Source of the DNA: Fibrobacteria bacterium
Lineage (GTDB): Bacteria; Fibrobacterota; Fibrobacteria; UBA11236
Assembly (NCBI GenBank): GCA_043745805.1
Contig: JAYTSD010000032.1
Location: 1-64,000 of the forward strand
DNA: 64,000 bases
Direction of reading: 5' to 3'
Numbering within the stretch: the first letter of the stretch is position 1; each line of letters starts with the position of its first letter. A program made the position numbers and the translations under genes. Shown piece by piece: positions 20,638 through 35,602 of this stretch. Under the pieces are notes generated by a model, which searched no databases, was not told where the DNA came from, and worked only from the letters and a program-made list of their open reading frames with translations.

Positions 20638-22665
20638 GTGCAATCTGAAATTTCGTTAAAAGTTAAAGTTCTTATTCCCGGCGGGATGTCCGAACTCTTT
20701 TGGTATCATGCGAATGTTGAAATGAAAGTTGAAGTCTGTTCTTTGGTGCAGGTAACGCTAAAATCCAAAACTGTAACGGGATTAGTACTAGAAGTGGGTT
20801 ATCCCGATTTGCCCTTTAAAACCAAGCCCATAGTGGGTTTGGCAGCGAAAAATACTTGGGTATCACCGAGTTGGGTGGAACTTTTACAATGGTTAAGTCG
20901 CTACTATTTAACTCCATTACCTCAAGTTTTAAGCGTATGTTTACCTAAATTTGCTTGGCGTTTTTTATTTGCCGAGCCACCTAAACTTAGAGTATCGCGT
21001 AAAAAGAAAATCCAGATGGTTGAAGCCGATGCTTCCGCATTAATTCTCAATAGCGAACAACATGAAGCTATAAATGCTATAGCCGAACCGCTAAGCAAAA
21101 ATCATTTTCAACCTTTTTTATTACATGGCATAACTGGTAGCGGTAAAACTTTAGTGTATTTGCATTTGGCCAAGCAAGCAATTGAGCAAGGGAAAAATGT
21201 TTTAGTGCTTTTGCCCGAAATTGCGTTGACGCCGCAAACTTTAGGACGCTTTCAAGCTTTTTTAGATCAAAAAGTATATGCTTTTCATAGTAACTTAGGC
21301 GTTACGGATAGGCGTGAATTATGGAAAGCGTTGTTTGCGAAAACCGCGCGGGTTATTGTGGGCGCACGCTCGGCTGTATTATGTCCGATGGATAATATTG
21401 GTTTAATTATTGTTGACGAAGAACATGATGGGAGTTATAAACAAAGTGAAATGGCTCCCCGTTATCAGGCGCGGGATGTGGCGGTTTATCGGGCTAAACA
21501 AATGGGTTGTCCAGTGATTTTAGGAAGTGCGACGCCATCCCTTGAAAGTTACTATGCTGCACAAACGGGTAAATTTACATTGCTCACCATGAATCATCGA
21601 GCCACTGGTGTATCCTCGCCCACGGTACGCTTAGTAGATATGCGCGAACAATTCGAATTGCAAGGTCCCTTGCCGCTTTCGATTCCACTTCGCGAAGCGA
21701 TGCAAAAGGCTTTGGAAAAAAATGAACAAATCATTTTATTTTTGAATCGCCGAGGTTATGCGCATCGTCGCGTATGCCAAGGTTGTGGCTCACCGCAGCA
21801 ATGTCAAAATTGCGCCTTACCTTTGGTGGTACATAAAAAAGTACAGAAATTAAAATGTCATTATTGTGATTTTTCTTTGAGTTATAGCGCACCTTGCCAA
21901 GCATGTGGTTCGCCTTCCTTTTTGGAAGTGGGTCGCGGCATCGAAAAAATCGAAGAGTATATTAAGCAAATTTTTCCTGCGGCAGGTATTTCACGATTGG
22001 ATAGAGACACGACCGATCCCGTGGGTGGACCGGATGAAATTTTGCAAGAGTTTAAAAGTGGGGTAACCCAGATATTACTGGGTACGCAAATGGTGGCTAA
22101 GGGCCATGATTTTCCGCGCGTAAATTTGGTGGGTGTACTCGATGCTGATATGGGTCTTGGCATGTCGGACTTTCGTGCGCAAGAACGTTCCTTTCAATTG
22201 ATCACGCAAGTAAGTGGCCGCGCAGGCCGCCATCATGCAGGCGGGCAAGTTTTTTTACAAACCTTTAAAGCCGACAATCCGATTTTACAATTTGCTTTGA
22301 CCCATCATTATGAAAATTTTTATGCCGCCGAAATAGAAATGCGTCAGGAATTACAGTACCCCCCTTTTCGTCGCTTATTATTAGTGGAAATTTCAGGTGA
22401 AGATGAACATTTAGTATTAGAGCAAATGCAACAGTTCGCCGAAATTTTTAAAGTACTTGCCGAAAAAGTGGAGGCTATTGTTTTAGGGCCAAGCTTTGCC
22501 GTACTTAAACGCATTAAGCGGCAATACCGTGCGCATCTCATTGCTAAAGGGAAAGCACCCAATCAATTGCAATGGTTGATGGAGGAAAGTTTAAAGCAGT
22601 TTAAAGCCGATCCCTCCGGTAAGACTCGCGTGCGAGCGGATATGGATCCTGTGGCTTTGATGTGA
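20638..22665 (+). CDS. priA: Primosomal protein N'
   Basis: LLHGITGSGKT, PEIALTPQ, DEEHD, GSATPS, LNRRGY, four CxxC pairs, GTQMVAKGHDFP. Confidence 0.97.
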   Translation: MQSEISLKVKVLIPGGMSELFWYHANVEMKVEVCSLVQVTLKSKTVTGLVLEVGYPDLPFKTKPIVGLAAKNTWVSPSWVELLQWLSRYYLTPLPQVLSVCLPKFAWRFLFAEPPKLRVSRKKKIQMVEADASALILNSEQHEAINAIAEPLSKNHFQPFLLHGITGSGKTLVYLHLAKQAIEQGKNVLVLLPEIALTPQTLGRFQAFLDQKVYAFHSNLGVTDRRELWKALFAKTARVIVGARSAVLCPMDNIGLIIVDEEHDGSYKQSEMAPRYQARDVAVYRAKQMGCPVILGSATPSLESYYAAQTGKFTLLTMNHRATGVSSPTVRLVDMREQFELQGPLPLSIPLREAMQKALEKNEQIILFLNRRGYAHRRVCQGCGSPQQCQNCALPLVVHKKVQKLKCHYCDFSLSYSAPCQACGSPSFLEVGRGIEKIEEYIKQIFPAAGISRLDRDTTDPVGGPDEILQEFKSGVTQILLGTQMVAKGHDFPRVNLVGVLDADMGLGMSDFRAQERSFQLITQVSGRAGRHHAGGQVFLQTFKADNPILQFALTHHYENFYAAEIEMRQELQYPPFRRLLLVEISGEDEHLVLEQMQQFAEIFKVLAEKVEAIVLGPSFAVLKRIKRQYRAHLIAKGKAPNQLQWLMEESLKQFKADPSGKTRVRADMDPVALM

Positions 22666-22676
22666 CGGTAGAAGTT

Positions 22677-22778
22677 GGGCGTGACCCCTCCGCTAAGGTT
22701 GTGGGGTCGGGCTGTGCAGGGCTTGCTTCGCTACGGTGCTTACGCACTGGCTTCGCCACCCTTACCATCCCTCACGCA
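22677..22778 (+). ncRNA. Structured GC-rich intergenic element, Flavo-1-like RNA motif or REP-like repeat
   Basis: GGGCGTGACCCC...GGGGTCGGGCT...CATCCCTCACGC; terminal GCGTGA/TCACGC pairing plus internal hairpins. It resembles my recollection of Flavo-1; not tested with a covariance model. Confidence 0.5.
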
Positions 22779-22798
22779 AGAATTTGTTTCTTAACTTT

Positions 22799-23170
22799 TT
22801 ATCCTACACTCGGCGTAAAAACTCGGAGGCGATGTCCATCGGGATCGCAAGCCACAAAAGTATATCCAAAATCCATGGCCGTTGGTTTTTGCAGCATAGG
22901 TAACTTACGGGTTTCCCAAAGGGCATAAACTTTTTTAACCTCTTCGTCATTCGCCACGGCAAAGGCGATTTCACTTCCGCCACTATTATTTTCCGGTTTA
23001 GGCTCAACCGTATGCTTGGCCCAAAGTCCCAACATCAAACCATTGGCGAGCGCAAATAAAACAAAGGTAGGAGACGATTCGATGGGATTTTTTTCGAGTA
23101 ATTGCGTGTAAAATTGTGAGCTACTGAGTGGGTTTTCCACATAGAGTAAAATAAAATTGGGCGCTTGCAT
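22799..23170 (-). CDS. VOC/glyoxalase-family drug-binding protein (EhpR-like)
   Basis: ILLYVENP..S..FY, SPTFVLF, GGSEIAF, MDFGYTFVACDPDGHRLRV. Confidence 0.88.
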   Translation of the reverse strand: MQAPNFILLYVENPLSSSQFYTQLLEKNPIESSPTFVLFALANGLMLGLWAKHTVEPKPENNSGGSEIAFAVANDEEVKKVYALWETRKLPMLQKPTAMDFGYTFVACDPDGHRLRVFTPSVG

Positions 23171-23216
23171 AACTTTTTCCTTTGATGATTAAATCAAAAT
23201 TAATGTTCTGAATATC

Positions 23217-23248
23217 AGTATAGAACTTCGTTATGACAGTTTCTGTCA
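23217..23248 (-). promoter_or_regulatory. Promoter of the VOC gene: TGACAG-N3-CTGTCA operator over the -35 position plus a TATACT -10
   Basis: Perfect inverted repeat at 23234-23248; minus-strand TATACT at 23222-23217; lies directly downstream of the WYL regulator gene. Confidence 0.65.
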
Positions 23249-23280
23249 GCAGTAAGATAAGATTTTAAAAACCTTGGTTT

Positions 23281-23970
23281 TTATTGCAGCGGAATGCCTT
23301 CGGAGTCCCGCCATTCTTGCAATAGAGCTTGGCGATTGAGCGGGAAAAATTCTTCGGTTGGGTATAAGGAAATGATTCTGTCGGTACGAAAATGGCGGAA
23401 GCCTTGGCGTAATTCACACCAAGCCACAATCACGCGAAGGCGATCAAAAAAGCCTAAGGCTAATGGCCAAATTATTCTTTGCGTTTCATTTTCTTTTAAG
23501 TCTTTATAGGAAATGTTGAGTTTATGCTCCTTGCGAATGGCTTGACGGATAGCGGTGAGATCGACATTCGAAGTAGGGTTTTTTTCACTCGGTCCAATTA
23601 AAAGCGCTGAGGCATGTAATTGTTCACGAAGTTCATGAGGTAACACGGAAGCTATTTTTCCTAAGGCCGCACGAGCCGCTTCGGCGAGTTTATTATCGGT
23701 TTTATCCGCCACCCAACGCATGCCAAGCACTAAAGCTTCAATTTCTTCAGGAGAAAACATTAAGGGAGGTAACATATAACCTGGCTTTAAGAGATAGCCT
23801 AAACCAGCCGCGCCATCGATGCGCGCGCCTTGGGCTTGCAAGGTAGCTATGTCACGATATACGGAACGTAGGCTAATGCCGAGTTCGGCGGCAAGCGTGG
23901 GACCCGTTACAGGGTAACGATGCTGGCGAAGGATTTGGAGAAGTTCGAGCAGACGTTCGGTGCGGGACAT
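23281..23970 (-). CDS. YafY-family HTH-WYL transcriptional regulator
   Basis: RLLELLQIL...LAAELGISLRSVYRDIATL, LPPLMFSPEE, AWCELRQGFRHFRTDRI. Confidence 0.93.
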   Translation of the reverse strand: MSRTERLLELLQILRQHRYPVTGPTLAAELGISLRSVYRDIATLQAQGARIDGAAGLGYLLKPGYMLPPLMFSPEEIEALVLGMRWVADKTDNKLAEAARAALGKIASVLPHELREQLHASALLIGPSEKNPTSNVDLTAIRQAIRKEHKLNISYKDLKENETQRIIWPLALGFFDRLRVIVAWCELRQGFRHFRTDRIISLYPTEEFFPLNRQALLQEWRDSEGIPLQ

Positions 23971-24048
23971 GGTTTTCCTAGTAATTAAATTTCATTGCGT
24001 GACTAGGGTGCGAAGCGATGAAGCCTCGATATATTTTGAATTTGATCT

Positions 24049-26316
24049 TTACTTTTTAACATAAAATGGCGCCACACTATACTCGTCTTGCAAATCTTTG
24101 TTTTCTGAAATCCAAATAACTACACCACCTAAGCAGATTGCCATTTTTGAGGCGTCTTCAAACGAAATACCTTGCTGTTCCCTCATTGCAGGATAATCAT
24201 CAAGTGCATATCCTGCTACATGAAAGTATTCATGAATGATTACCAGTTTTTGTAAATCCGCTTCCGTATCTTTTGCAAAAAATTGCGTGGTAAACAGTAT
24301 ACCTTTAAAAAACCCCGCAGGAGGTCCATAATCGTGCTGAGGAACGGCTTCTGCCAATACATTTTTTGCAGCTTCATCATCCAAGTAATAATCATTATTA
24401 GCAAGTTTTAAATTTTTGTTCTGTTGAAATTTTGGGAGTAACACATCCAATTTCTCAGATATTTTTTTATCATCGGGATCATTGAAATTAAATTTTTGCC
24501 CATTTCCACTATTAGGAAATATACCCATATATTTTCCCAATGCTTGGCATATTACATCCGCTTTTTGATATCTAGGGGATCCATTTTTAATATCATTCTG
24601 TAATTTAACCAGTGCTGTTATGGTTGTTTCCAGCGCCCTATTTCTCTTCTCTTCAAGATTTTGAATAAGGCTAAGATTTTCTCCTTCTAATCGAGGGAAA
24701 TATTTTTTTGCCGCAAGAGCTGGTACATAGTAGAGAGTTTTTCCGGTCTTTTTATCGATTATTTGTGATTCCTCAGGCCCTGTATTATTGGACATTGACG
24801 TCCCATTCGCAGAATTATTTTGTGTGTTTTGGCCCAAGGCATAATACCAGGCGGTCCAGGGCTCATCGGCGATAGTTTTGTAAATTTCTATTTCGCCGAT
24901 AAAAATGGTTTGATTAATATTTTCCTCGTCTGATATATCGGGGTTACGTCCGTATTTTATGGATTCTTTAGCTATTCCACGACGAGTAAATAATGTGGAC
25001 CAAACCGCGCCATGGGCACTAAATTTATCGTCCTTAATTTTCATAGTATTTTCATTTGTCCAGCCTGCTTGCTCTGGAGTTGGAATAGTTTTTCCAATTT
25101 TTACATCCATTAAAGCAGCATTAAAAAAACCAACTCGACTACCAAGGGGAGCATTTGTTAAAAGTAACTCTACCTCTTCAAGTGGTACAGTGTTATCGTA
25201 AACTACACCATCTGTTGCTTTATTATTTTTTACGGGCTCACCATTTTTAATTAAGATAGTTTTCATTTTTTCATTAATTGTATATCTCGAATAAATTGCT
25301 TTTGCGGACAAACCAGTAGACCGGTGATTTTTAAACCAAAATTCAGTTTGTGAAAATCGTTCATCCAATCGATATGGACCTAAAACATTCCACATGGCAT
25401 AAAGGTGATGAACTTGCACCCATTCTGCGCAATCTACTCGCCAAGCACCAAAGAGATAGTTTAAAACTGCAATATTACACATTGAACCATACATGGCTTT
25501 AATCGCGTCAGAAGGATTTTTTCCTTGTTTTAATTTTAATACTACCATTTGTAAATTACCATCTTCGCCCATCGGATTACCCGGTTCCCAATACTCTTTA
25601 TCATACCGAGCTTCTGGATTATCAATTACACTATTTCCTACTGCTCGACCGCCATTGACTCCCGCACTGAGTTCATTCGCAGCTTTGACTAAGTAATAAT
25701 TATAGGCTTCTATTACGTCAAAATACAGGAAGAGCACATAATCTAATTCGGAACCGCTGAATTCATCCATGAGTTCTGACGTTAAATCATCGCCATATTT
25801 CGCTTTATAGATTTCCCTTAATTTATTTAACGCAGAGGGATCGCGCTTGAAGGGAATGAGAGTCGCATACACAGCTTCTTCATCGGTGCCAAGCCCATTT
25901 ATTGCCTCTTTGATACGAGTAGCCGCTTGTGCATAATCGATGGACGATGAAGTTTCAATTTTTTGATCTGAATTCGCAGTGCCTCGATTTAATAGCTGCA
26001 TAGCAAATTCTAATGAGTTACCATCAAAATCACCATCGATTTCGTCCACTAATACTGTTTGATAAAGACTGAAATAAACTTTGTTAAGTTCTTCTATTGC
26101 TGTTTGATTTTGATTCAGCTCTTGCAAGGCCTGATAAACCGTAGTTTCATCCGTGCCCATTCCTTTCATCGCTTTATATATCAGATTTGCTAGTCGATGA
26201 TAATTGAGTGGAGGTGGTGGATTGTTCGTATCCTTTTTATTGGTGATGTTTAGCTTAGGAATTGGAATATCACTTCCAGGTAAATCATTTTCGCTTTTGA
26301 CTAATGGATATCCCAT
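24049..26316 (-). CDS. Putative effector: two annexin-like repeats + Tgl-like transglutaminase + HEXXH metallopeptidase domain
   Basis: KAMKGMGTDE and EAINGLGTDE repeats; LKQGKNPSDAI...VDCA...GSRVGFFN...WTNENTMKIKDDKFSAHG; IIHEYFH...D; no signal peptide. Confidence 0.72.
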   Translation of the reverse strand: MGYPLVKSENDLPGSDIPIPKLNITNKKDTNNPPPPLNYHRLANLIYKAMKGMGTDETTVYQALQELNQNQTAIEELNKVYFSLYQTVLVDEIDGDFDGNSLEFAMQLLNRGTANSDQKIETSSSIDYAQAATRIKEAINGLGTDEEAVYATLIPFKRDPSALNKLREIYKAKYGDDLTSELMDEFSGSELDYVLFLYFDVIEAYNYYLVKAANELSAGVNGGRAVGNSVIDNPEARYDKEYWEPGNPMGEDGNLQMVVLKLKQGKNPSDAIKAMYGSMCNIAVLNYLFGAWRVDCAEWVQVHHLYAMWNVLGPYRLDERFSQTEFWFKNHRSTGLSAKAIYSRYTINEKMKTILIKNGEPVKNNKATDGVVYDNTVPLEEVELLLTNAPLGSRVGFFNAALMDVKIGKTIPTPEQAGWTNENTMKIKDDKFSAHGAVWSTLFTRRGIAKESIKYGRNPDISDEENINQTIFIGEIEIYKTIADEPWTAWYYALGQNTQNNSANGTSMSNNTGPEESQIIDKKTGKTLYYVPALAAKKYFPRLEGENLSLIQNLEEKRNRALETTITALVKLQNDIKNGSPRYQKADVICQALGKYMGIFPNSGNGQKFNFNDPDDKKISEKLDVLLPKFQQNKNLKLANNDYYLDDEAAKNVLAEAVPQHDYGPPAGFFKGILFTTQFFAKDTEADLQKLVIIHEYFHVAGYALDDYPAMREQQGISFEDASKMAICLGGVVIWISENKDLQDEYSVAPFYVKK

Positions 26317-26351
26317 AGAAAGTCCTTTTTTCTGTTTTTAAATTTTACCAA

Positions 26352-26984
26352 CTATGATTTTTTACCTATCGATCCATAGGGAACACTACAAAAACACAGG
26401 TAACCTTTACCGCCATCGGCCGGAATTATTTCTAGGGAAAAATAATCTGACATTGGGGCATCGGTGAATTCCACATCTACCGTGGAAGATGCTCCACTCC
26501 CTGCTTGCGAAGGGGTATAAGAGTCACCTATTTTTTTTGACTCATTATATTTACGAGATCTGGAAAAGAGGTGTAAGCTATCTTGGCAATCCTTTGCTTC
26601 GGCCTCATTCATATCTATTCTTACGAGTATAGATCCTTGTTTAAATTCTGTATCCCCGTAACTTGCATTGGCATCGAGTTTCAAATGAGCTTCCATGGCG
26701 AAATCAACCGTTCCGCCTTTGAAGGATACAGCGACATCGGCGATAGCACCAGCCACTGCACTAAGGGAAGCCGCACCTCCAGCAACCGCGGAATTTAGGG
26801 TATCCTTAATGTTTCCTAAAGCCCCATCAGCCATGGCTTTGCCTGCGTCAATAGCACCGCCAACAGCTCCTTTGGCTGCATCCAGCGCGCCACCGACTGC
26901 TCCAGCAATATCCACTTTAGGTACGGTAACCTTGGGTACTTCGACTTTAGGTATATCTATATTTCCACTAAATCCAAAACCCAT
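26352..26984 (-). CDS. Hypothetical protein: PKV repeats, Ala/Gly-rich helical region, beta-rich C-terminal domain
   Basis: GGAG RBS; 8-nt gap from the upstream gene; no recognised family. Confidence 0.7.
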   Translation of the reverse strand: MGFGFSGNIDIPKVEVPKVTVPKVDIAGAVGGALDAAKGAVGGAIDAGKAMADGALGNIKDTLNSAVAGGAASLSAVAGAIADVAVSFKGGTVDFAMEAHLKLDANASYGDTEFKQGSILVRIDMNEAEAKDCQDSLHLFSRSRKYNESKKIGDSYTPSQAGSGASSTVDVEFTDAPMSDYFSLEIIPADGGKGYLCFCSVPYGSIGKKS

Positions 26985-26992
26985 ATTCGCTC

Positions 26993-28045
26993 CTACTCGT
27001 CACTTATGGTTTTAACATTGCCCGGAACAGTTTTAGCTGTGGGATAAATTAGTTTTGAGGTTCCAATTTTATATCCATTTTTTTCAGAACTAATGGTGTA
27101 CTCACCGGCTTTAAGTCCAAAAAAGGAAACGAAGCCATGTTCATCACTGGTTGTTTTAGCCGTAGTTGGACCTGTTAATACCACGCTTGCAAAAGGAGCA
27201 GGTTGTTTTTTAGCATCGACGATTTGCACATGAATGCCCTGACATTCAAAATCCACCGTATGTTTAACATTTTCCAACCATTTGGGATAAGGGCTGGACT
27301 CACCTTCGGAAGTAGTAGCTGTAGGCTGCGGCAGAATAGCTTGTTGGAAAAAGAAAACTTCTAATTTTCTATCGTCGGCTACAAGCCCAGAACTTGTTTT
27401 GATGTCTTCGAAATGGCCTTCCACCCCATGGGCAATAGGTGTTACGTCCTCACCCAAGGTGGTTTTTTCCAAACCCATATACGCTTCTACAATGGCTTGT
27501 CGAGTTTCAAATTCGGATTTGCCATCAACCGGTAAAGACGCCCCTTTATTTTTATTGGCATATTCCTGAAAAGCTTTTACGGCAGTATTAGTTTTTTCAT
27601 CGGTGATGCCAGAGGCATAGCCATTATAAAAAGGGTTATCGCCCTCAGGTAACACCGATAATATGAGTTGTAATTCACGCGTTCCCCAACGGGATTGGGA
27701 TTTTTTTTCCGGGCCAAATTGATTGAGCCAAGGATTGGGTTTGCCTTTTAAAAAGGCACCTAACATTTGCGCGCGATCAAACGCTATATCGGATCCAGCC
27801 AAATCTTCATCGCTGCCGGCATGGCCTACAATAAGGACTTGTGCCTTAGGGTATTTAGTGTGCATGCCAATAATGGCTTTTATTCCGGCCAATGCTTGCG
27901 GGAGTAAGAAACATTTATTGGCATCGAAAATCATTCCATTCAAACGTACTCGATCGACAATTTGCGTTTGTAATTCAGCTCTCTCTCCAGCATTAATTTT
28001 AATGCCTTTGGTGAGTTCTTTAACTGTTACGGTTAGCGTGGCCAT
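26993..28045 (-). CDS. OmpA-like + peptidoglycan-binding-like + prealbumin/carboxypeptidase-regulatory-like protein
   Basis: FDANKCFLLP...LIVGHAG...DRAQ (OmpA-like); TNTAVKAFQ...LPVDG (PG_binding_1-like); VQIVDAKKQP...SDEHGFVSFFGLKAGEY. Confidence 0.7.
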   Translation of the reverse strand: MATLTVTVKELTKGIKINAGERAELQTQIVDRVRLNGMIFDANKCFLLPQALAGIKAIIGMHTKYPKAQVLIVGHAGSDEDLAGSDIAFDRAQMLGAFLKGKPNPWLNQFGPEKKSQSRWGTRELQLILSVLPEGDNPFYNGYASGITDEKTNTAVKAFQEYANKNKGASLPVDGKSEFETRQAIVEAYMGLEKTTLGEDVTPIAHGVEGHFEDIKTSSGLVADDRKLEVFFFQQAILPQPTATTSEGESSPYPKWLENVKHTVDFECQGIHVQIVDAKKQPAPFASVVLTGPTTAKTTSDEHGFVSFFGLKAGEYTISSEKNGYKIGTSKLIYPTAKTVPGNVKTISDE

Positions 28046-28105
28046 TCGATTTACAAACCTAGGAAAATAATAAGGTGGATTTTTTTTTCATGTTCATCAT
28101 AATGT

Positions 28106-31100
28106 CTATGCTTTGCCAGCCAGCTTCTTTGCGGCCGCCAGCGGATACATTGCATGAAATTGACCTTGGTACTGCGCCGGCCAAGGATAAGGCGCACCAT
28201 TTTCGGCATACCATTTATTTAATTGCACATCGACTGACGTATCGCCAACTCCTTCAAGGTTATGGATTTTTTTGGTGTAGACCTTACCCGAAGGCCAAGG
28301 CCAACCGTCTTTATAGTCAGTAGCAGCAAGAGTGGGATCATAGCGTAGCCGCCCAGTTACTCCTTTTTCGGGTTTCACATTCCCCAGTGTGCGGTTCATT
28401 TTAGGAACCACATTTGGCATTTTGTACCCATTGGCTTTATCCTTGATCACGGCAGGCTGTGCTTTGACAGTTTCCTGCACCTTAGTGAACTCTTCGGGGA
28501 TGATGTGCGGCAGGAGGCCTTCAAGGTTATACTCCAAAGCTTCTTTGGAGAATTCGAAATGTTGCTCCATGTACCATGCATCGCGAAGCGCGCTTTCCAA
28601 TACCTCCGCAGGGAATCCTGGTGACACGAACTTGGTATAGTCCGAAGGGCAAACTACGTCGGCATAAATGGAGCGGAAGGTGAGATCGCGTTTGGTTTTT
28701 TCTGGAGGATACGGATGAGCCGCGCAATAGCCAAGATAAATACGTGCCCGTACTACATATTCCGCGCTCGAGCGGGCGTCCGCCACAGTTTTTTCGAAAT
28801 AACCTTTGTTGTAGAGTACCGTGAGCAATATTTTGCGTTTCTCTTCTTCAGATAACGCAAGTAATTTTGCTTTATCAGGAAAGAGCTTACCATCACCATT
28901 GGCCAGATTTTCCCAGAACTGTTTGTAGTACTGATCCCAAAAGGCATTTCCCGTATGGAGTCCTGTATCGTAGGGGGTAACTGGCGGAGTAGCAGATGGT
29001 TTCTTGGTACCCCCAGCGAATAGCCCGTCGCGCACTCCATTGGGATATTTCTCTTGCCAGTCATGTAAGGTCTTGAGCGAATTGGTGAAATCGTCCCAGG
29101 CTTGTGACTCTTTTGCGAAAACCCATAACATGCCCGCACCAACTGCTAGTGGCGCACCCAAGCACAATCCGGCATCACTGAGAGCAAAGCGTAAGGCTAT
29201 ATCTGTGAGGCCTTCCCCAAAAACTTTCGAACCATTGGCCACTTCTTCTTTTACAGCACGTTCAATAATTGAGGCCCAATCTGGTTCCACCGTGCCCTTT
29301 AGCTCAATGATCACATTGCCCACTAGGTCCACAGCTGTTCCTTCGACTTGCAATGGTATTATCACATCTTTGAATAAAAATGAACCCACTATTGCGAGTT
29401 GGCCTAGCGCAGCAGCATCTGGCAGCTTGAAGCCGAATTTTCCACCTACAATATCTTTGCCAGCTTTGAGTTTAAATGCATTGAGTTTGAACTCTAATGA
29501 ACCTTGAACCGTACCTTTGGAGTCTCCCCATTGGGCGGGAGCGTCGACCGAAAGCTTGTACCACATCGAGATGTCAGCGACAGTATCTTCAATTTTATCC
29601 GCAGCGAATTTTGATAATTTATCGGCACCGTTATAATCGGTGGTCGAAGCCCATTTGATAAAGCCTAGCGGATTAAAGTTAGCCTTTATACCCCATTCAC
29701 TTTGACCTTTACCCATAATTGCGTCAATATCCCAGGATTCGACGGAAGTGAACTTGGCTTCGATTCCCTTGAACAAGGAACTATCGGTTTTGAGTTCGGC
29801 CTTCTTGTTTATTTCTGGCGCAGTGCTGCCTTCGGGAGGTTTAGTGGGTGCTGCGATGCCGAATTTCTTCGCCTTCTCCGAGGTAAGTCGCACGGCTAGT
29901 GTAGGTTTGATGGTTGCCGAAAGATTTATGGTGGCCCAAGGATCCTTTCCCGGTACCTTCCAGTTTTTCTTTTCGAGTTTGAGTTTTTTGCTAATGAAGT
30001 CTGTAAGAGCTTTAGGTGTAAGAGGTACCGTCCAAGTACCCGCACCGTCCTTATTGTTCCAAGGCGGCAGGAGTTCTACGCCCAAAGGAGGTAAAAGTAA
30101 ATCCTCTAGCCCAGCAGTGTTTACCTGCACGTTACTCTGGCTCTCTACGCTGCGATCCTGAAAGCAAGCAGTGAGGTAATAATGAGTCGCATTGGATTTT
30201 GGTTGAACGGTTAAGGTGCGTGCCATCGCACTTATTTTGGTAAGGAGATGCTTTCCATTACCCGCATCCTCGTATATTTCCACGTCAGTAGCACCTTCTA
30301 CATTCCATGCAAGGTAAACATCAGAATTGCGCGGTACATCGAGGCTATTGCCCTTTTGTGATCCATCAGGAGTAATAGCTTCGAACTTCGTAATTGCTAG
30401 CTCTGCGGTTTCTTTTAGAGTAATGTTTACGGCGCCATAGTATGCATCGGGCGCTGCTGGCTCAACAATAAGTTCAATATAGATTATACCTTCTGGTGTA
30501 TTAATGTCAGCTGAAGTCGGGGTAATCTCCATGCTACCCTTCCATTTGCCATCCACTTTCTTGGTAGCCGAGGTTACATCGCGAACTGAATTCATTTTTT
30601 TACCGAAGGAAATACCCACACCAGTCACATCGCCGGAATCGATTTCCCAATCTAACAATAAGGCCAAGCCAGGCTTTGCGGTAATCTGACCACTGGCGCG
30701 CGAACGTGTTCCGCCATTTTTAGTGTACACCACAAAACTAGCGCTGGTTGCAGGCTTGAGCGGTACTTTAGAATCAATAGATTTAATAGACTTGTTTTCT
30801 AGGCTTTTTGTCTTCTCTAAATCCGGAAACAACACAGTCGCTTCACCAAGAGCAATATCATCCACACGCCCATGGCCTTTATCATTTAATTTCCCATGAA
30901 ACTCTTTACCATCGCTGGCGATTACAATAAAGCTTTCGCCTGCTCTTAGTTTTTGATCTTGACCCAACAAATCAAATTCAACATAGGTAAGTGGCGTTTT
31001 AACCACAGCATTAGTTTGATTAAAATCAGGAAAGACTACTGATGCTTCACCCGTTGCAACAGGTTCTACTCTGGCAAAACCATTTTTATCCAATTGCCCG

Positions 31101-31552
31101 CGAAACATATCTCCGCGACTATCCGTTAGTATATATCGTTCATTTACAAATGGTTTTTTGTTAGTATCGAGTAAAATAATTTCAATAAAAGTGGTTGTTT
31201 TTTTGACTGGGCTATCATCGATTAAATCATCTAAGGTTTCAAAATCCTCAGCAAAGCGCGGAACAAAATTTATGACGGGCAATGGTTTTTCGACCACTAC
31301 CAAAGATTTGATAATTAATAAATGTGATATGCGTTCAAGTAAATCCTCAGTTTTGCTATGCGCTAAAGATTTAGCAATGGATTCCGAAAAAAGTATGCTC
31401 GGAACTTCGCGTAACTTTTCTTCAGGTAATTTTCGTAAAAATCTTTTGATTTCGGAGAGGGTAGCAAAAGACGAGACTACTTCGCCACTTTGTAAATCGC
31501 GCGGCCGAACAAATTCGGTTTTTTGTCGAGCTGCTAAAATAACCGTGCGCAA
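28106..31552 (-). CDS. Large hypothetical protein: two transthyretin-like repeats, Ig-like domains, unknown C-terminal region with a hydrophobic segment
   Basis: TTG start after GGAGG; FIEIILLD..KPF..ERY....G....GQLDKNGFARVE....GEASVVFPD occurs twice; no signal peptide. Confidence 0.7.
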   Translation of the reverse strand: MRTVILAARQKTEFVRPRDLQSGEVVSSFATLSEIKRFLRKLPEEKLREVPSILFSESIAKSLAHSKTEDLLERISHLLIIKSLVVVEKPLPVINFVPRFAEDFETLDDLIDDSPVKKTTTFIEIILLDTNKKPFVNERYILTDSRGDMFRGQLDKNGFARVEPVATGEASVVFPDFNQTNAVVKTPLTYVEFDLLGQDQKLRAGESFIVIASDGKEFHGKLNDKGHGRVDDIALGEATVLFPDLEKTKSLENKSIKSIDSKVPLKPATSASFVVYTKNGGTRSRASGQITAKPGLALLLDWEIDSGDVTGVGISFGKKMNSVRDVTSATKKVDGKWKGSMEITPTSADINTPEGIIYIELIVEPAAPDAYYGAVNITLKETAELAITKFEAITPDGSQKGNSLDVPRNSDVYLAWNVEGATDVEIYEDAGNGKHLLTKISAMARTLTVQPKSNATHYYLTACFQDRSVESQSNVQVNTAGLEDLLLPPLGVELLPPWNNKDGAGTWTVPLTPKALTDFISKKLKLEKKNWKVPGKDPWATINLSATIKPTLAVRLTSEKAKKFGIAAPTKPPEGSTAPEINKKAELKTDSSLFKGIEAKFTSVESWDIDAIMGKGQSEWGIKANFNPLGFIKWASTTDYNGADKLSKFAADKIEDTVADISMWYKLSVDAPAQWGDSKGTVQGSLEFKLNAFKLKAGKDIVGGKFGFKLPDAAALGQLAIVGSFLFKDVIIPLQVEGTAVDLVGNVIIELKGTVEPDWASIIERAVKEEVANGSKVFGEGLTDIALRFALSDAGLCLGAPLAVGAGMLWVFAKESQAWDDFTNSLKTLHDWQEKYPNGVRDGLFAGGTKKPSATPPVTPYDTGLHTGNAFWDQYYKQFWENLANGDGKLFPDKAKLLALSEEEKRKILLTVLYNKGYFEKTVADARSSAEYVVRARIYLGYCAAHPYPPEKTKRDLTFRSIYADVVCPSDYTKFVSPGFPAEVLESALRDAWYMEQHFEFSKEALEYNLEGLLPHIIPEEFTKVQETVKAQPAVIKDKANGYKMPNVVPKMNRTLGNVKPEKGVTGRLRYDPTLAATDYKDGWPWPSGKVYTKKIHNLEGVGDTSVDVQLNKWYAENGAPYPWPAQYQGQFHAMYPLAAAKKLAGKA

Positions 31553-31660
31553 TTTACCTCCTGCTGTGCAATAAGATGTAGCAAATTAAATATTTCCGAC
31601 CACTTTGATTAGCGCCAAAAATAAACAAAATTAAATGGTACAAATTTTATCACAAATGCA

Positions 31661-32656
31661 TCAGTTGAGAAAATCTACTATTCTCGCCAATAATTTGGCA
31701 TGAACCTGAGTGCGATTAACGCCTTTTGCATCGGAAAAGTAACGAGACATAATTAATCGTCCCAGCCAAGTGCCTTCATTGGCATAAACAAAATGTCCCG
31801 CATGGGTTTCGAAGGTTTGTATATGAGGACAGAGAAATGTTATTTGGGATTTCACCCAATCCGAATTAAATATTTCGGATTTTGAGGAGCCTACATAAAG
31901 TAGCGGCGCATTTAAATTTTTGATACTCTCCTCACTAAATCCAGGAAATATGGGAGTGGGATCGAGGAGAATAAATTTTTTGATTCTTTTTTCAGTATAC
32001 AGTTTAGCATTTGCCTCCACATCTTCATTTGAAGGTTTTTCATTTGCAAAAGCTTTTTCTACACGCTTTGCTAAGATATTTTTTGCTTCGCTGCCGTCTG
32101 CCGTATTCATGACTTGTTGAATATCATAGGACAAGCCTGCCAATAAAAGTCCGGTTTGTCCGCCAACACTATGACCGATAAAATAAATTTTACTCGTATC
32201 CACAATGGGTTGAAATGAAGATTTTCTAGCAATAGTCCAATCTATTACTTCTGTTACTACTAATGCGCGTTTCCAAAATCGAAAAAGTTCACCTTCTTTA
32301 AAATCTTCTTTTGCTTGATGATCATGATGTGGCGCGATGACGATATATCCCTTTTGAGCTAAAGCTACGGCCAACCAAGGATAAGAAGTTTCTGTTCCTA
32401 ATATTCCATGAGACAAAATTATTAGGGGGAATTTTTTTTGATCAGGTAATATCGCGTTTTCAATTAAGCTTACTTTTTTCGTAAAAGGTAAGGGGACATA
32501 GCGAACTTCGGTTAAGCCTTGCTGTTGTTTTGTTGGATACCAAGCATGTGCGGAAAATTCATCCGTTTTTATTTTAATATGACCTGCTTCGTAAGCATGG
32601 GAAAAGATGACGAAAAAAAACAAAAAAATAATAGTAGGGGAGAATTTCATTTTCAT
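31661..32656 (-). CDS. Secreted alpha/beta hydrolase (dienelactone hydrolase-like)
   Basis: AWYP, FPLIILSHG, LAQKGYIVIAP, nucleophile elbow GHSVGG, AGHFVY. Confidence 0.88.
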   Translation of the reverse strand: MKMKFSPTIIFLFFFVIFSHAYEAGHIKIKTDEFSAHAWYPTKQQQGLTEVRYVPLPFTKKVSLIENAILPDQKKFPLIILSHGILGTETSYPWLAVALAQKGYIVIAPHHDHQAKEDFKEGELFRFWKRALVVTEVIDWTIARKSSFQPIVDTSKIYFIGHSVGGQTGLLLAGLSYDIQQVMNTADGSEAKNILAKRVEKAFANEKPSNEDVEANAKLYTEKRIKKFILLDPTPIFPGFSEESIKNLNAPLLYVGSSKSEIFNSDWVKSQITFLCPHIQTFETHAGHFVYANEGTWLGRLIMSRYFSDAKGVNRTQVHAKLLARIVDFLN

Positions 32657-33258
32657 TTTTCCTTGGTTTTAATAAAAGTGTTTAATTGATTATAGCAGCT
32701 CATTAAAATATTTTCAGATAAGTCATTTCCTCTTGCGCCACGAGCAAGAATTATTCCTCCTACACAAGTAGACATTAGCGCTGAAAATTCAGGTTCAGTT
32801 ATTTTAAAATTTTCGTCAGAAAATATTTTGCAACGATCGGCTGCATATTTATGAAATTCAATAGCAAATAAAGTCTGCATAGCTTTAGAATTTTTCCCCA
32901 TTTCCGTGGTCATTGCAGGCAATGGACAACCTTGACCGGTTTTGTCATAATCGCGATGTTGGGTACTTAAATAAATTTTAAGAAAAGCGCGTAACTTAGG
33001 AGCTCCACTTAAATTAGAGGGGATTGCTGCTAAGGTTTGTTTCCCTGCCTCTGCAATAGCATATTGAAATGTTTCTGCAACCAAAGCTTCTTTAGATTTG
33101 AAATGCGCATAGAATCCGCCTACCGTGAGGCCCGCTTCTTGCATGACTTTAGCCACACTCCCTGCTTTAATCCCATTTTTCCGCAATAGTTTAGCGCTCG
33201 CGGCTAAAATTTTTTCATGAGTTTCTTGTTTTTGTAGAATCGACATTTGGTTTTCCAT
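32653..33258 (-). CDS. TetR/AcrR-family regulator
   Basis: SVAKVMQEAGLTVGGFYAHFKSKEAL; YLSTQHRD...GCP; ATGA overlap with the hydrolase gene. Confidence 0.93.
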   Translation of the reverse strand: MENQMSILQKQETHEKILAASAKLLRKNGIKAGSVAKVMQEAGLTVGGFYAHFKSKEALVAETFQYAIAEAGKQTLAAIPSNLSGAPKLRAFLKIYLSTQHRDYDKTGQGCPLPAMTTEMGKNSKAMQTLFAIEFHKYAADRCKIFSDENFKITEPEFSALMSTCVGGIILARGARGNDLSENILMSCYNQLNTFIKTKEK

Positions 33259-33290
33259 ATATTATAACTATAATATTATAGTTATAATAT
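33259..33290. promoter_or_regulatory. Perfect 32-bp palindrome, probable TetR operator and promoter
   Basis: ATATTATAACTATAATATTATAGTTATAATAT equals its own reverse complement, abuts the tetR start and contains TATAAT on both strands. Confidence 0.75.
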
Positions 33291-33359
33291 TAAATGATTG
33301 GGTGGGAAAAGATGATTTTTATTTCCTTTACTTTTTATCTTAAATTCTAGGGGTACTTT

Positions 33360-33830
33360 ATGCAAAAAGCAACATTTGGCGCAGGCTGTTTTTGGGGAGT
33401 AGAATTAACCTTTCAAAAAACTCCGGGAGTTTTATCTACGCAAGTGGGTTATACGGGCGGTTGGAAAGAAAGTCCTACCTACAAAGATGTTTGCTATGAA
33501 GACACCGGCCATGCTGAAGTTGTAGAAGTTACTTTTGATCCCTCACAAGTGGATTATAAAACATTATTGGAAATTTTTTGGGAGAATCATAATCCCACCA
33601 CTTTAAATCGCCAAGGCCCTGATACAGGAACGCAATATCGTTCCGCGATATTTTTCCATGATGAAATGCAGAAAAATATTGCTACGGAATCTAAAAATCA
33701 AAAACAGACTTCTGGGAAATACCGTAACCCCATTGTCACTGAAATTGTACCTGCGGTAACTTTTTATCGAGCAGAAGAATATCATCAGCAATATTTGGAA
33801 AAACGTGGTTTAGGTAATTGTCATATTTGA
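33360..33830 (+). CDS. msrA: Peptide methionine sulfoxide reductase MsrA
   Basis: [34 protein letters not shown]. Confidence 0.97.
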
Positions 33831-33836
33831 TCCAAT

Positions 33837-33868
33837 AAAAAGGGTGTAGCTAAATTGAGCTTCACCCT
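33837..33868 (-). terminator. Terminator hairpin between convergent genes
   Basis: Minus strand AGGGTGAAGCT-loop-AGCTACACCCT followed by a T run. Confidence 0.65.
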
Positions 33869-33898
33869 AAAAATTAAATTTTATTCAAGTTTTTAAAC

Positions 33899-35602
33899 TT
33901 AATGCGTAAAGTTCGAGGGCGTAAATGATAATTGCGAAATCGTTGGAGACGAAACCAAACTATTTAAATCAATTGCGCGGCGATCTAAATCATTGAATGT
34001 GCGTGTTACCGTAGGAACAACTGGGTCTTGAACGGTTTCTCCTGTTAAAAATCCCGCTAAAACTGCAACTGAAGCGCGAGCTCTAGGATTTACTTGCAAA
34101 AAAGTTGTTCTCACTTCGCGACCATGGCAACCATTGCAAGTATTTAAGGACACTAAGTGACGGGCTTCGTTATTTACAATTCCGGGAGCACTCCAAAAGT
34201 CAATTTGATTTGTGGAGTGGCCGCCACGGAAGGGGACACTATCAAAAACAAGCGGAACAATATTGGTACCAGCTAAGATTTGCGCTTCATTTTGGTTTAC
34301 GTATTTGGCAAATGTAGTACTGTGATTGAATTTATTGGCCGGTGTTTGTTTGGTGTCTACTTGAAAAAATAACCCCGCATCGGCTCTTGGTGCTTTGGCA
34401 ATATTAAATTCACGTAACTCCCAAGGTCCGGCTAAGGCAATTTCATTGGTGCGCATGCGTATGATTTCGCTTCCATTGGCTCTGCCAAAAGCTAATCCAG
34501 CATCGGCTTTCACAACACTTTCGGTAATTTTTTGTAAAGAATCACGGTAAGCGCCAGAATTTAAGGTCATGGTATTAAGATCGACCCACTTTTGTGCATA
34601 GGCTTTAGCCGAAGCAGCATTAGAGCGGTCTACCGCATATTCCATGATAAAAGTGAAATTAGGAATTATTTGACAGGAGCCATCTGCAACTTTAGTATCT
34701 AAGTCAAGCACTCCCCAAACAAACCGTAATTCACCCGCCAAGCCTTCGCCAAAAAATAAATTTTGTCTTAAATCCACACGATTAACAATACCTAATAAGC
34801 GAAAGGGTGCTTTGTTCATTGCCAAGCGGCCAGTATTTCCGCTCGCCCGCAACCAAGGATCAGTAACCCTTGTTCGAATAGCGGCGCGTGCTGGAACGAT
34901 ATCCCCATTTACCGTTAATGAAGTTTCCCATTTAGAGAGAATCGACATGGCTAAGTCATGCGGTGACTTTCCGGTTTTGGAAGTGTTCGCCATTTGAGTT
35001 AATAAATAACCAAAAGTCCATTTTTTTGTTGAGTCCTTTACACTAGTACTTTTACAAGGATCGGAAGTGCGAAAGCTATTATTCACCACGGAAAGATCAC
35101 GGATGAAAAGCGTTTTTTCCGCGTCCAAATTGGTACTCGCGGTTAATGCCGCAGCCGTAAGTTCCGTTGGCGAAGTCGTTGCCAAAGCTTGTACTGAGCT
35201 AGGAGTACCCGATGATTTCAGTTGAACCTGATGATTAACTAATTCATTTAAATCAATATTGATAAGCGCTGAATAAATTCCATCTTTGGCGGCATCATCA
35301 CCTAAACCATCATCATGTAAGGTGACAATTCCTTCTTGATAAATAATATCCAATGCTTTGGGAAGATTCACCTCTTCAAATTGAACCTTGAGCAAGCCCT
35401 TTTCAAGGCCTGATTGAATACCCATTGGGGTTACGGTAACCGAAGATGTCTTGGGAGGGTTTGTCCGTAAATCGCGACCTGGGATTTGTGTGGCTACGGA
35501 TTTTTCTAAAGTAGGAGAGGCGGCCAGCGTATTTAGAGGTAATGAGGATAAGGTACATGCTAAAAGACTGTACTGGAACAAAGATTTTTTTTTGCTAAAC
35601 AT
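33899..35602 (-). CDS. Secreted protein with a choice-of-anchor X-like motif and one CxxCH
   Basis: Signal peptide; LHDDGLGDDAAKDGIYSA; TCNGCH near the C-terminus. Confidence 0.7.
   Translation of the reverse strand: MFSKKKSLFQYSLLACTLSSLPLNTLAASPTLEKSVATQIPGRDLRTNPPKTSSVTVTPMGIQSGLEKGLLKVQFEEVNLPKALDIIYQEGIVTLHDDGLGDDAAKDGIYSALINIDLNELVNHQVQLKSSGTPSSVQALATTSPTELTAAALTASTNLDAEKTLFIRDLSVVNNSFRTSDPCKSTSVKDSTKKWTFGYLLTQMANTSKTGKSPHDLAMSILSKWETSLTVNGDIVPARAAIRTRVTDPWLRASGNTGRLAMNKAPFRLLGIVNRVDLRQNLFFGEGLAGELRFVWGVLDLDTKVADGSCQIIPNFTFIMEYAVDRSNAASAKAYAQKWVDLNTMTLNSGAYRDSLQKITESVVKADAGLAFGRANGSEIIRMRTNEIALAGPWELREFNIAKAPRADAGLFFQVDTKQTPANKFNHSTTFAKYVNQNEAQILAGTNIVPLVFDSVPFRGGHSTNQIDFWSAPGIVNNEARHLVSLNTCNGCHGREVRTTFLQVNPRARASVAVLAGFLTGETVQDPVVPTVTRTFNDLDRRAIDLNSLVSSPTISQLSFTPSNFTH

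Follow-up and report, generated by a model that had tools for sequence, protein, structure and literature searches.

A candidate auxiliary type VI secretion effector cassette in an uncultured Fibrobacteria bacterium

Which machine, if any, would deliver the products of a group of effector-like genes that sits among housekeeping genes? The question is raised by four open reading frames (ORFs), all on the minus strand at positions 24049-31552 of the first 64,000 nucleotides of contig JAYTSD010000032.1 (assembly GCA_043745805.1), from an uncultured sediment bacterium of the Fibrobacteria. We refer to this whole 64-kb stretch as the window and to the four genes as the cassette; every coordinate given below for a cassette feature refers to the minus strand. 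Gene 1 (28106-31552, 1148 aa) is a putative polymorphic cargo effector, gene 2 (26993-28045, 350 aa) a proposed secreted carrier or adaptor, gene 3 (26352-26984, 210 aa) the conserved partner of gene 2, and gene 4 (24049-26316, 755 aa) an annexin-bearing putative toxin. From gene 1 to gene 4, the ORF coordinates leave gaps of 60, 8 and 35 nt. An earlier description of this DNA, made from its letters alone (hereafter the original prediction), had listed four co-oriented genes with these sizes and gaps, and the ORFs lie exactly where it placed them. It had taken them for an orphan adaptor-plus-effector module, loaded onto a contractile injection system whose genes lie elsewhere. In this paper we argue that the cassette is an auxiliary ("orphan") effector cassette of a type VI secretion system (T6SS), of a type that recurs in the Fibrobacterota, and we assign to this reading a probability of roughly 60%.

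Injection systems in the genome and across the phylum

The genome does encode injection systems elsewhere, as had been supposed. Contig C22 carries a T6SS core (TssK, TssL, TssM, TssA, TssB, TssC, Hcp, TssE, TssF and TssG), and contig C37 an orphan VgrG. Two PAAR genes run off contig ends, at C3:1-543 (minus strand) and on C40 (L043:8191-8676), and the C3 copy continues into a transthyretin (TTR)-like module of the type found in gene 1. On contig C43, at about 113-147 kb (L015, L068-L070), lies a complete-looking extracellular contractile injection system (eCIS) with a sheath protein (798 aa), a gp19-type tube, Pvc16_N, an AAA ATPase and a spike. As a separate observation, the 4.3-kb contig C36 (1-4303) starts inside a TTR-bearing ORF, followed by a 186-aa gene and a Lipase_3 gene (495 aa); perhaps the assembly split a PAAR-TTR lipase cassette, of which this contig holds the other half.

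It is important, then, to decide between the two kinds of machine. We scanned 296 genomes of the phylum, taking E ≤ 1e-20 as the threshold for a gene-2 homologue (the tallies include the unpublished genome G021, which contributes one count). Such a homologue occurs in 23 of the 296 genomes. TssC is found in 115 of the 296 overall and in every one of the 23 gene-2-positive genomes; the eCIS marker Pvc16_N is found in 45 of the 296 and in six of the 23. The one-sided Fisher test gives p = 8e-11 for co-occurrence of gene 2 with TssC and p = 0.12 with Pvc16_N, and at the level of genera all 10 gene-2-positive genera fall within the 44 of 70 that are TssC-positive (p = 0.006); these genomes are kin and not independent draws, so that the p-values overstate the association, and the direction is still clear. 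Within the window's own family gene 2 is present in 10 of 31 genomes, and some genomes hold up to seven copies, whereas the largest family (f5), which has the most Pvc16_N (25/151), has gene 2 in none of its 151 genomes. The gene-2 family follows the T6SS and not the eCIS, perhaps with occasional eCIS use. The eCIS alternative that the original prediction had allowed is the less likely of the two on these counts.

Gene fusions and neighbourhoods speak to the same question. Among 107 homologues of gene 2, precomputed Pfam matches identify two, P0184 and P0207, in which Hcp is fused to the gene-2 module, and the same two emerge from the 15 that we scanned directly. (P0207 is of lower quality than P0184: a stretch of some 60 aa, at columns ~430-490 of our alignment A2, leaves the otherwise invariant family sequence and looks like a frameshift.) Scanning 185,579 species genomes, we obtained 16 loci that hold a gene-2 homologue; six metagenome loci and L079, from contig C87 of genome G015 (a genome of the window's own family), bring the foreign loci examined to 23. 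In L016, L017 and L021, which represent one near-identical lineage, an Hcp and an Hcp-TTR gene stand just upstream of the gene-2 homologue. In L031 a distant gene-2 relative (31% identity) is part of a 1380-aa fusion of Phage_GPD (VgrG-like), TTR, OmpA and PG_binding_1. The search of homologue neighbourhoods for T6SS or eCIS links, which had been proposed as a check, has thus yielded Hcp fusions, Hcp neighbours and a VgrG-like fusion of a distant relative. Together with the TssC co-occurrence and the TTR modules on VgrG and PAAR, these results support the idea of an adaptor-plus-effector module for an injection system encoded elsewhere, and narrow it to the T6SS.

Several observations would fit a different assignment, in which the cassette is cargo of the genome's own eCIS on C43. 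The locus exists; the nearest relatives of gene 4, P0008 and P0009, consist of DUF4157, annexin and a domain, here called X, that they have in common with gene 4; the gene 1-type TTR module occurs on DNA_circ_N baseplate-type proteins; and the genome that holds the L031 fusion of a VgrG-like domain with OmpA/PG-binding modules has Pvc16_N, with no TssC found. In the available excerpts of the literature, DUF4157 is an eCIS marker and annexin is among the eCIS-associated domains (PMC8213781), and annexin follows the PVC-metallopeptidase in predicted toxins of the Photorhabdus virulence cassettes (PVC), where OmpA also appears as a toxin domain (PMC3482391). Yet all three DUF4157/eCIS_core proteins of this genome lie at the eCIS locus itself, on its 3' side (open frames of 1093, 724 and 1021 aa, with a Cys-rich N-terminal stretch in common), where they are likely its cargo toxins. 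Moreover, DUF4157 (PF13699) has no match in genes 1-4, the C-terminus of gene 4 is unlike the genome's DUF4157 proteins, and the cassette is found among housekeeping genes on contig C32 and not at the 3' end of the eCIS operon. Given also the tallies for TssC and Pvc16_N, the absence of gene 2 from f5, and Hcp fusions and neighbours that are specific to the T6SS, we regard delivery by the eCIS as unlikely.

One may also ask whether an injection system is involved at all. The cassette could be a polymorphic toxin or adhesion cassette that is exported by lysis, vesicles or an unrecognised system, its apparent T6SS link reflecting a common pool of domains. The window contains no T6SS genes, and TTR, PG_binding_1, annexin and Ig-like modules are used across many secretion routes, as far as an excerpt of PMC3482391 goes. 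Furthermore, secretion of the cassette proteins by the T6SS is something that we infer, which leaves such a route some room. (We likewise infer that gene 2 acts as a carrier and that genes 1, 3 and 4 are toxic.) On the other side stand the covalent Hcp fusions of the gene-2 family, the VgrG-like fusion of its distant relative, and strict co-occurrence with TssC in the sampled phylum. Nor do the cassette proteins have a signal-like start: a Kyte-Doolittle scan found no signal-like hydrophobic stretch within the first 40 residues of any of the four, in agreement with the earlier claim that none has a Sec signal, for which hydropathy alone is the basis here. We find export by another route quite improbable.

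The conserved pair, genes 2 and 3

If the cassette belongs to a T6SS, the part of it most likely to tell us so is gene 2, which is far more conserved than genes 1 and 4. Its architecture consists of an OmpA-like domain with an inserted PG_binding_1 domain, followed by a C-terminal TTR-like domain. The last of these, a CarboxypepD_reg domain (PF13620) at aa 271-332 (27050-27235), matches with E 2.5e-9 and 37.8 bits against a cut-off of 32.3. The PG_binding_1 match stays below its cut-off (18.9 versus 23 bits), and Pfam OmpA (PF00691) has no match at E ≤ 0.1; the first ~265-300 aa, on the other hand, share 35-39% identity with three other proteins that this genome encodes, and these match both Pfam OmpA and PG_binding_1. 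Of the modules that the original prediction had named, the TTR-like one of gene 2 is confirmed directly, and the OmpA-like and peptidoglycan-binding-like ones in part, by way of these paralogues' Pfam matches. Where the paralogues have a motif of the type GHTD...N..LS..RA, which we take to be the canonical peptidoglycan-binding motif of OmpA-type domains, gene 2 reads GHAGSDED...DIAFDRA, and because of this departure peptidoglycan binding by gene 2 is uncertain.

The three paralogues, of 871-971 aa, are informative in their own right. They are encoded on contig C49 (L010:7820-10735, minus strand) and contig C1 (L011:1595-4210 and L012:10681-13296, plus strand), have an OmpA/PG_binding_1 N-terminus with no signal-like start, and end in a PLD domain, a Het-C domain or an unknown glycine-rich domain. 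Each is preceded by a Big_13/Ig-rich protein. Immunity-like genes follow two of them, a double DUF7738 after the Het-C paralogue and MORN_2 after the glycine-rich one, and a 390-aa ORF without a Pfam match follows the PLD paralogue. This is classic polymorphic-toxin behaviour, in which the OmpA/PG-binding module is the delivery or anchoring part. A protein with Imm72/Imm71 is encoded in the same surroundings, at L012:2414-3325.

The 107 homologues of gene 2 are 46-75% identical to it, and their named sources are Fibrobacterota or Myxococcota. We considered and abandoned a transfer of gene 2 from the Fibrobacterota: the genome that contains the window falls among those same records. The core motif of the family could be located in 97 of the 106 foreign homologues, and these 97 can be placed into classes according to their N-termini. 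A short N-terminus like that of gene 2 is found in 14; an extension of ~160-200 aa in 27; one of ~205-220 aa in seven, including both Hcp fusions; and one of ~225-262 aa in 44, with lengths between these classes in the remaining five. Compared with a profile of the N-terminus of gene 1, the 44 long extensions give an hhalign Prob of 98.3% (E 2e-14, 167 columns), which makes them similar to the head and TTR modules of that protein (see below). The 27 extensions of ~160-200 aa show no such likeness (Prob 0.7%), and alignment A2, made with MAFFT, suggests that they form a beta-rich domain.

The domains of gene 2 invite a third explanation, namely that genes 2 and 3 are never secreted and serve as accessories that anchor something to the envelope or the peptidoglycan in the manner of TagL, genes 1 and 4 being unrelated neighbours. 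An excerpt of PMC13584744 describes OmpA-like peptidoglycan-binding domains that anchor T6SS membrane complexes, as in TagL; the strong conservation of gene 2 relative to genes 1 and 4 would suit such a role, as would the finding of neither a toxin family nor an immunity gene in the cassette. But TagL has three transmembrane helices according to the same excerpt, and a hydropathy scan of gene 2 reveals no transmembrane segment or signal peptide that would bring it to the periplasm. The family is fused to Hcp, which is an expelled part of the machine; the OmpA/PG-binding module heads PLD and Het-C toxins; and genes for Het-C, Tle1-like, Ntox46 and Ntox5 proteins surround gene-2 homologues. A purely anchoring function seems to us very unlikely.

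Returning to the T6SS reading, the neighbourhoods of gene 2 reveal what travels with it. The homologue of gene 2 is followed directly by one of gene 3 at six foreign loci out of the 23 (L016, L017, L018, L037, L038 and L079), and in all six loci with this pair an annexin or gene-4-like protein is encoded within about 5 kb downstream. In L016, L017 and L037 the annexin is recognised by Pfam, in L018 and L038 by phmmer matches to gene 4, and in L079 by a match to the annexin-like proteins of L016 and L018. Known toxins appear as well: Tle1-like phospholipases in L016 and L019, a Het-C toxin in L016, and, in L030, an Ntox5 protein downstream of the gene-2 homologue. A gene-2-like gene of genome G005 has the gene for a TTR protein directly upstream. 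The adaptor families DUF4123, DUF1795 and DUF2169 are absent from the Pfam scans of the cassette and of the scanned ORFs near homologues. The cassette had been put forward as an orphan and as a candidate undescribed system; this does not survive for genes 2 and 3, which recur together with an annexin-like protein as a backbone in related genomes, and "orphan" does hold for genes 1 and 4. We had ourselves entertained the idea that the whole cassette is absent from relatives, which proved wrong for genes 2 and 3 once they were found in the phylum scans.

Four of the loci share a further feature. The proteins encoded after the gene-3 homologues at L016:11777-14443, L017:11751-12698, L018:2814-4229 and L079:8231-9262 have a common N-terminal region (phmmer E 1e-44 to 1e-58) and unrelated C-termini, that of L016 being Het-C. 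The common region matches the TTR profile in L017 and L079 and is absent from the window's cassette. To judge by this pattern, it seems to be another delivery tag, used by cassettes of this type.

Gene 3 itself has no Pfam family, even at E ≤ 10. It consists of an Ala/Gly-rich N-terminal region, a conserved hydrophobic segment and a C-terminal beta-domain. The segment, at aa 73-105 (26670-26768), is invariant in the columns of alignment A5 and, with a hydropathy of 1.56, is the most hydrophobic of the protein. The C-terminal domain of ~85 aa also ends the annexin protein of L016, and the gene-3 profile is matched in 17 of the 296 phylum genomes, mostly in this domain only. As an observation on the side, the domain is found by itself in many proteins that differ in their other parts (open frames of ~160-670 aa), at their C-termini or close to them. 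By its distribution, it is a mobile module.

Structure prediction of a complex of genes 2 and 3 gives a score of 0.62, compared with 0.00 for the best of three controls. The mark that we apply to this score is reached by 58 of 80 solved complexes and by two of 110 mismatched pairs, a calibration that applies only roughly here, because the prediction used our own alignments. A score of 0.00 came from one of the three runs; at least 6% of contacts agree between runs, and the partner reaches a pLDDT (predicted local distance difference test) of at least 43. The predicted interface is formed by aa 73-105 of gene 3, packed against all three domains of gene 2. This model supports the view that gene 2 may bind gene 3. 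In the mechanism that we propose, gene 2 would be made in the cytoplasm, would ride on an Hcp, VgrG or PAAR part and would itself be secreted, holding gene 3 by the invariant hydrophobic segment in the way of a carrier or chaperone. Genes 2 and 3 would constitute the conserved backbone, and genes 1 and 4 the variable cargo.

The putative cargo, genes 1 and 4

Gene 1 has no Pfam match of its own. It begins with a helical head domain at about aa 2-104 (31241-31552), which belongs to no Pfam family and which we propose as a loading domain, followed by two TTR/CarboxypepD_reg-like modules at aa 118-180 and 186-247 (30812-31201) that a profile recognises with E 4e-24 and 2e-12. Modules of this type are about 60 aa each and of the CarboxypepD_reg/prealbumin kind. 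When 1.84 billion representatives were searched exhaustively with HMMER, using full-length gene 1 as the query, 258 proteins matched at E ≤ 0.001, nearly all of them only over aa ~110-250. Among the 34 of these that were scanned with Pfam, many match PF13620 (CarboxypepD_reg); one is a VgrG (P0141), with the module at its C-terminus, and four carry DNA_circ_N. The two TTR-like modules claimed for gene 1 are therefore supported by our own profile and by homologues that match PF13620, with a direct Pfam match lacking. The head is the sole copy in the genome by profile scan. It occurs also on small proteins made of head and TTR (for example P0158; alignment A1), and in L030 it recurs in duplicate, in a 941-aa protein with two heads, two TTR modules and Ntox46 encoded directly upstream of the gene-2 homologue.

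The remainder of gene 1 is far more isolated. For the body (aa 266-1148) we find one close relative, P0006, at 68% identity, among 5.8 billion clustered proteins and the 1.84 billion representatives. The C-terminal module at aa 679-1127 (28172-29518), a putative toxin domain, contains a hydrophobic segment at aa 794-812 whose hydropathy peaks at 1.78. It is homologous to aa 356-765 of P0110, a distant relative that begins with PG_binding_1 (21% identity; E 4e-19 in pairwise comparison and 2e-6 in the library search), and has no match in Pfam (pieces searched to E ≤ 10), among PDB sequences or in the Atlas. A PDB sequence search with gene 1 returned nothing, and the ESM Atlas had no usable match to aa 480-1148. 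We describe the module as near-orphan and possibly membrane-active. Gene 1 would on this account comprise a loading region of head and two TTR modules, two predicted beta-sandwich domains, and this module with its hydrophobic helix.

In gene 4, two annexin repeats at about aa 40-200 (25750-26190) match PF00191 with 58.6 bits against a cut-off of 25, as had been foreseen; the region matches PDB annexins down to E 1e-19, and AlphaFold2 (AF2) models it as helical repeats with a pLDDT of 75-92. Domain X follows at aa 205-487 (24856-25704). It is conserved and we suspect an enzymatic toxin domain. Over aa 200-755, gene 4 has only three homologues (P0007, P0008 and P0009) in the database of 5.8 billion proteins, with 47-55% identity in domain X. 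Cys296, His303/304, Glu422 and His435 are invariant, in a comparison of only four sequences of at least 47% identity. The best family match of domain X is PF20085 (TGL), at E 0.07 and 12.8 bits against a cut-off of 23.7, in a part of the model where pLDDT is below 50. Since this is the sole basis for calling gene 4 a transglutaminase, the label is not confirmed.

The C-terminal region, aa 488-755 (24052-24855), is unique to gene 4: it is absent from the three homologues, has no Pfam match at E ≤ 10, and bears no similarity to the genome's own DUF4157 proteins. It contains an HExxH motif, HEYFH, at about aa 695-699. The motif is the only ground for the "peptidase" of the original prediction, which has no family match behind it and is likewise not confirmed. 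For aa 200-755 as a whole, a PDB sequence search returned nothing, and the ESM Atlas gave weak M35/aspzincin-type leads (0.76, compared with the tool's bar of 0.9). Gene 4 would thus combine a lipid-binding annexin pair, a conserved Cys/His/Glu domain and a unique HExxH region. Given the composition of P0008 and P0009, we read domain X as one toxin core that may be used by two delivery systems.

A number of results weigh against assigning the cassette to a T6SS, and it is convenient to consider them together. There is no vgrG, hcp or PAAR gene within the 64-kb window, where housekeeping and regulator genes surround the cassette. In Pfam and NCBIfam, no known toxin family is matched by any of the four proteins. 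The cassette contains no immunity-like gene, only antisense overlapping ORFs inside it, in contrast to the three paralogous toxin loci of the same genome. Ten further genomes reached through named loci (a set that overlaps the 296, in that at least G064, G066, G067 and G069 are, by their contig coordinates, G109, G108, G119 and G132 of the phylum scan) include eight with TssC; none was found in G062 and G063, which are metagenome-assembled genomes (MAGs) and may be incomplete, and G063 is the Pvc16_N-bearing genome of the L031 fusion. P0008 and P0009, the nearest relatives of gene 4, carry the eCIS marker DUF4157, N-terminal to the annexin and domain X, and this genome has an eCIS. With TTR removed, the head alone matches the 44 long extensions at Prob 73% (E 3e-5), a modest homology. 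The structure models of gene 1 (three-sequence alignment, mean pLDDT 34) and gene 4 (four-sequence alignment, mean pLDDT 45, confident only in the annexin region) are too poor for a fold search. Finally, the Pfam scans of neighbour ORFs cover 60 of the 209 called in the 16 species-genome and six metagenome loci.

Known delivery systems and the setting of the locus

How does the proposed cassette compare with what is known? T6SS auxiliary or orphan modules with TTR adaptors, of which the VgrG-TTR protein with Tle1 in enteroaggregative E. coli is presumably an example, are likewise detached cassettes with the T6SS core elsewhere in the genome. The likeness extends to TTR modules, one of which ends the VgrG P0141 while another follows PAAR in this genome, to N-termini that are not signal-like, and to the lipase-type toxins (Tle1-like, Het-C) of sister cassettes. 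Unlike such modules, the cassette lacks vgrG, PAAR, hcp and an immunity gene, and its TTR modules are not confined to the spike: gene 1, the cargo, has them, and so does gene 2, a separate OmpA-like protein.

To our knowledge, T6SS effectors have no universal signal. Delivery domains and adaptors such as MIX, FIX, RIX, WHIX, Tap and Eag each opened large hidden effector sets when they were new. WHIX is reportedly an N-terminal delivery domain found in polymorphic cargo effectors of the T6SS. Another is RIX, which occurs on cargo effectors and secreted adaptors in Vibrionaceae, according to an excerpt of Kanarek et al. (2023, PMC10435454). The cassette resembles both in that a conserved N-terminus of head and TTR precedes variable toxin C-termini (gene 1, and Ntox46 in L030), and gene 2, which is apparently non-toxic, might carry other effectors as RIX proteins do. 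It differs from RIX in that the records are from Fibrobacterota and Myxococcota, not Vibrionaceae, and secretion is predicted here; we claim no sequence relation to RIX.

Specialised Hcp effectors are Hcp proteins with C-terminal extensions. P0184 and P0207, with Hcp joined to the gene-2 module, are of this form, as are the Hcp-TTR proteins beside the gene-2 homologues in L016 and L017, whereas the window's gene 2 lacks an Hcp domain. A three-domain protein of 350 aa, it is probably too large for the Hcp lumen. Eag/DUF1795-type chaperones shield hydrophobic segments of T6SS effectors and are thought to stay behind. The predicted interface in which gene 2 buries aa 73-105 of gene 3 is reminiscent of them; the folds are unrelated, however, and gene 2 has PG-binding-type domains and a family whose Hcp fusions suggest secretion.

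The PVC-metallopeptidase (DUF4157) and Tox-OmpA proteins, in excerpts of Zhang et al. (2012, PMC3482391) and Geller et al. (2021, PMC8213781), share with the cassette an annexin placed before an enzymatic toxin domain and an OmpA-superfamily domain within toxin systems. P0008 and P0009 have exactly the order DUF4157, annexin and domain X. By contrast, DUF4157 is missing from gene 4, the gene-2 family goes with the T6SS and not with the eCIS, and here the OmpA-like module stands by itself or at an N-terminus, whereas in Tox-OmpA it is found at the extreme C-terminus.

We found no paper that describes the gene 2/gene 3 carrier family in a search of the open literature, with subscription journals and supplements outside it. 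There is also a bolder proposal, which we offer tentatively and consider doubtful as a whole. The gene 2/gene 3 pair and the head+TTR region would be a T6SS loading system, absent from the literature that we searched, of Fibrobacterota and, with parts fused, of Myxococcota-type genomes. In it, gene 2 would be a secreted carrier that grips a small membrane-active gene 3 and brings toxins tagged with head+TTR or with annexin to the spike or tube; gene 1 would end in a new membrane-active toxin domain, which has two relatives among the 1.84 billion representatives; and the toxins, having no immunity gene, would act on targets that lack something the producer has, for example eukaryotic or non-kin cells. 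The direct step from "no immunity gene" to "eukaryotic target", which the original prediction had hinted at, is pure speculation.

The T6SS of Fibrobacterota and of Myxococcota-type MAGs are, as far as we know, little studied. If the T6SS reading is true, the carrier-like pair and the head domain provide handles for the search for further effectors in those phyla; a peptidoglycan-binding protein would apparently be fired and not anchored; and at least two putative toxin domains, the C-terminus of gene 1 and domain X of gene 4, would be added. If it is not, what is left is an accessory toxin locus of an ordinary kind in an uncultured bacterium from sediment.

The flanks of the cassette bear on one last explanation. 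Downstream lie a WYL-HTH regulator gene, on the same strand and at a distance of 78 nt, and a glyoxalase gene; upstream lie an alpha/beta-hydrolase gene and a TetR gene, so that the cassette does stand between unrelated regulator cassettes, as had been noted. The wider neighbourhood consists of housekeeping genes (PriA, MsrA, SSB, NamZ and photolyase). A WYL regulator so close by could suggest an anti-phage defence or some other intracellular conflict system. The four proteins match no PADLOC family at E ≤ 0.01, however, and the WYL-glyoxalase pair is kept in all five relatives' loci examined, where no cassette gene occurs within the 15-20 kb fetched around the pair. The regulator, the next gene past the downstream end, is therefore native and outside the module, and we regard a defence function as hardly credible. 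Synteny with these five relatives is limited to the WYL-glyoxalase pair, and hence the far insertion boundary cannot be set.

A few minor observations on the locus remain. Two ORFs near the cassette, at 33899-35602 (minus strand, 567 aa) and 38780-40597 (minus strand, 605 aa), have no Pfam family at E ≤ 0.001. An NCBIfam search of the cassette proteins gave nothing meaningful, and scans for promoters and terminators returned counts close to the shuffled expectation. Gene 1 starts with TTG, and an AGGAGG ends 4 nt before it. A 33-kb contig in two DNA runs covers positions 21000-33288 with zero differences, these runs possibly being the assembly's own source. In a second strain population, from another two runs of that study, the junction between the start of gene 1 and the hydrolase gene is spanned by a 1.6-kb contig, and there are 14 single-base differences in 13.5 kb (21000-34500, about 0.1%) and no indels. 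Eight of the 14 substitutions fall inside the cassette, six of these being synonymous, and the cassette genes look intact and under constraint.

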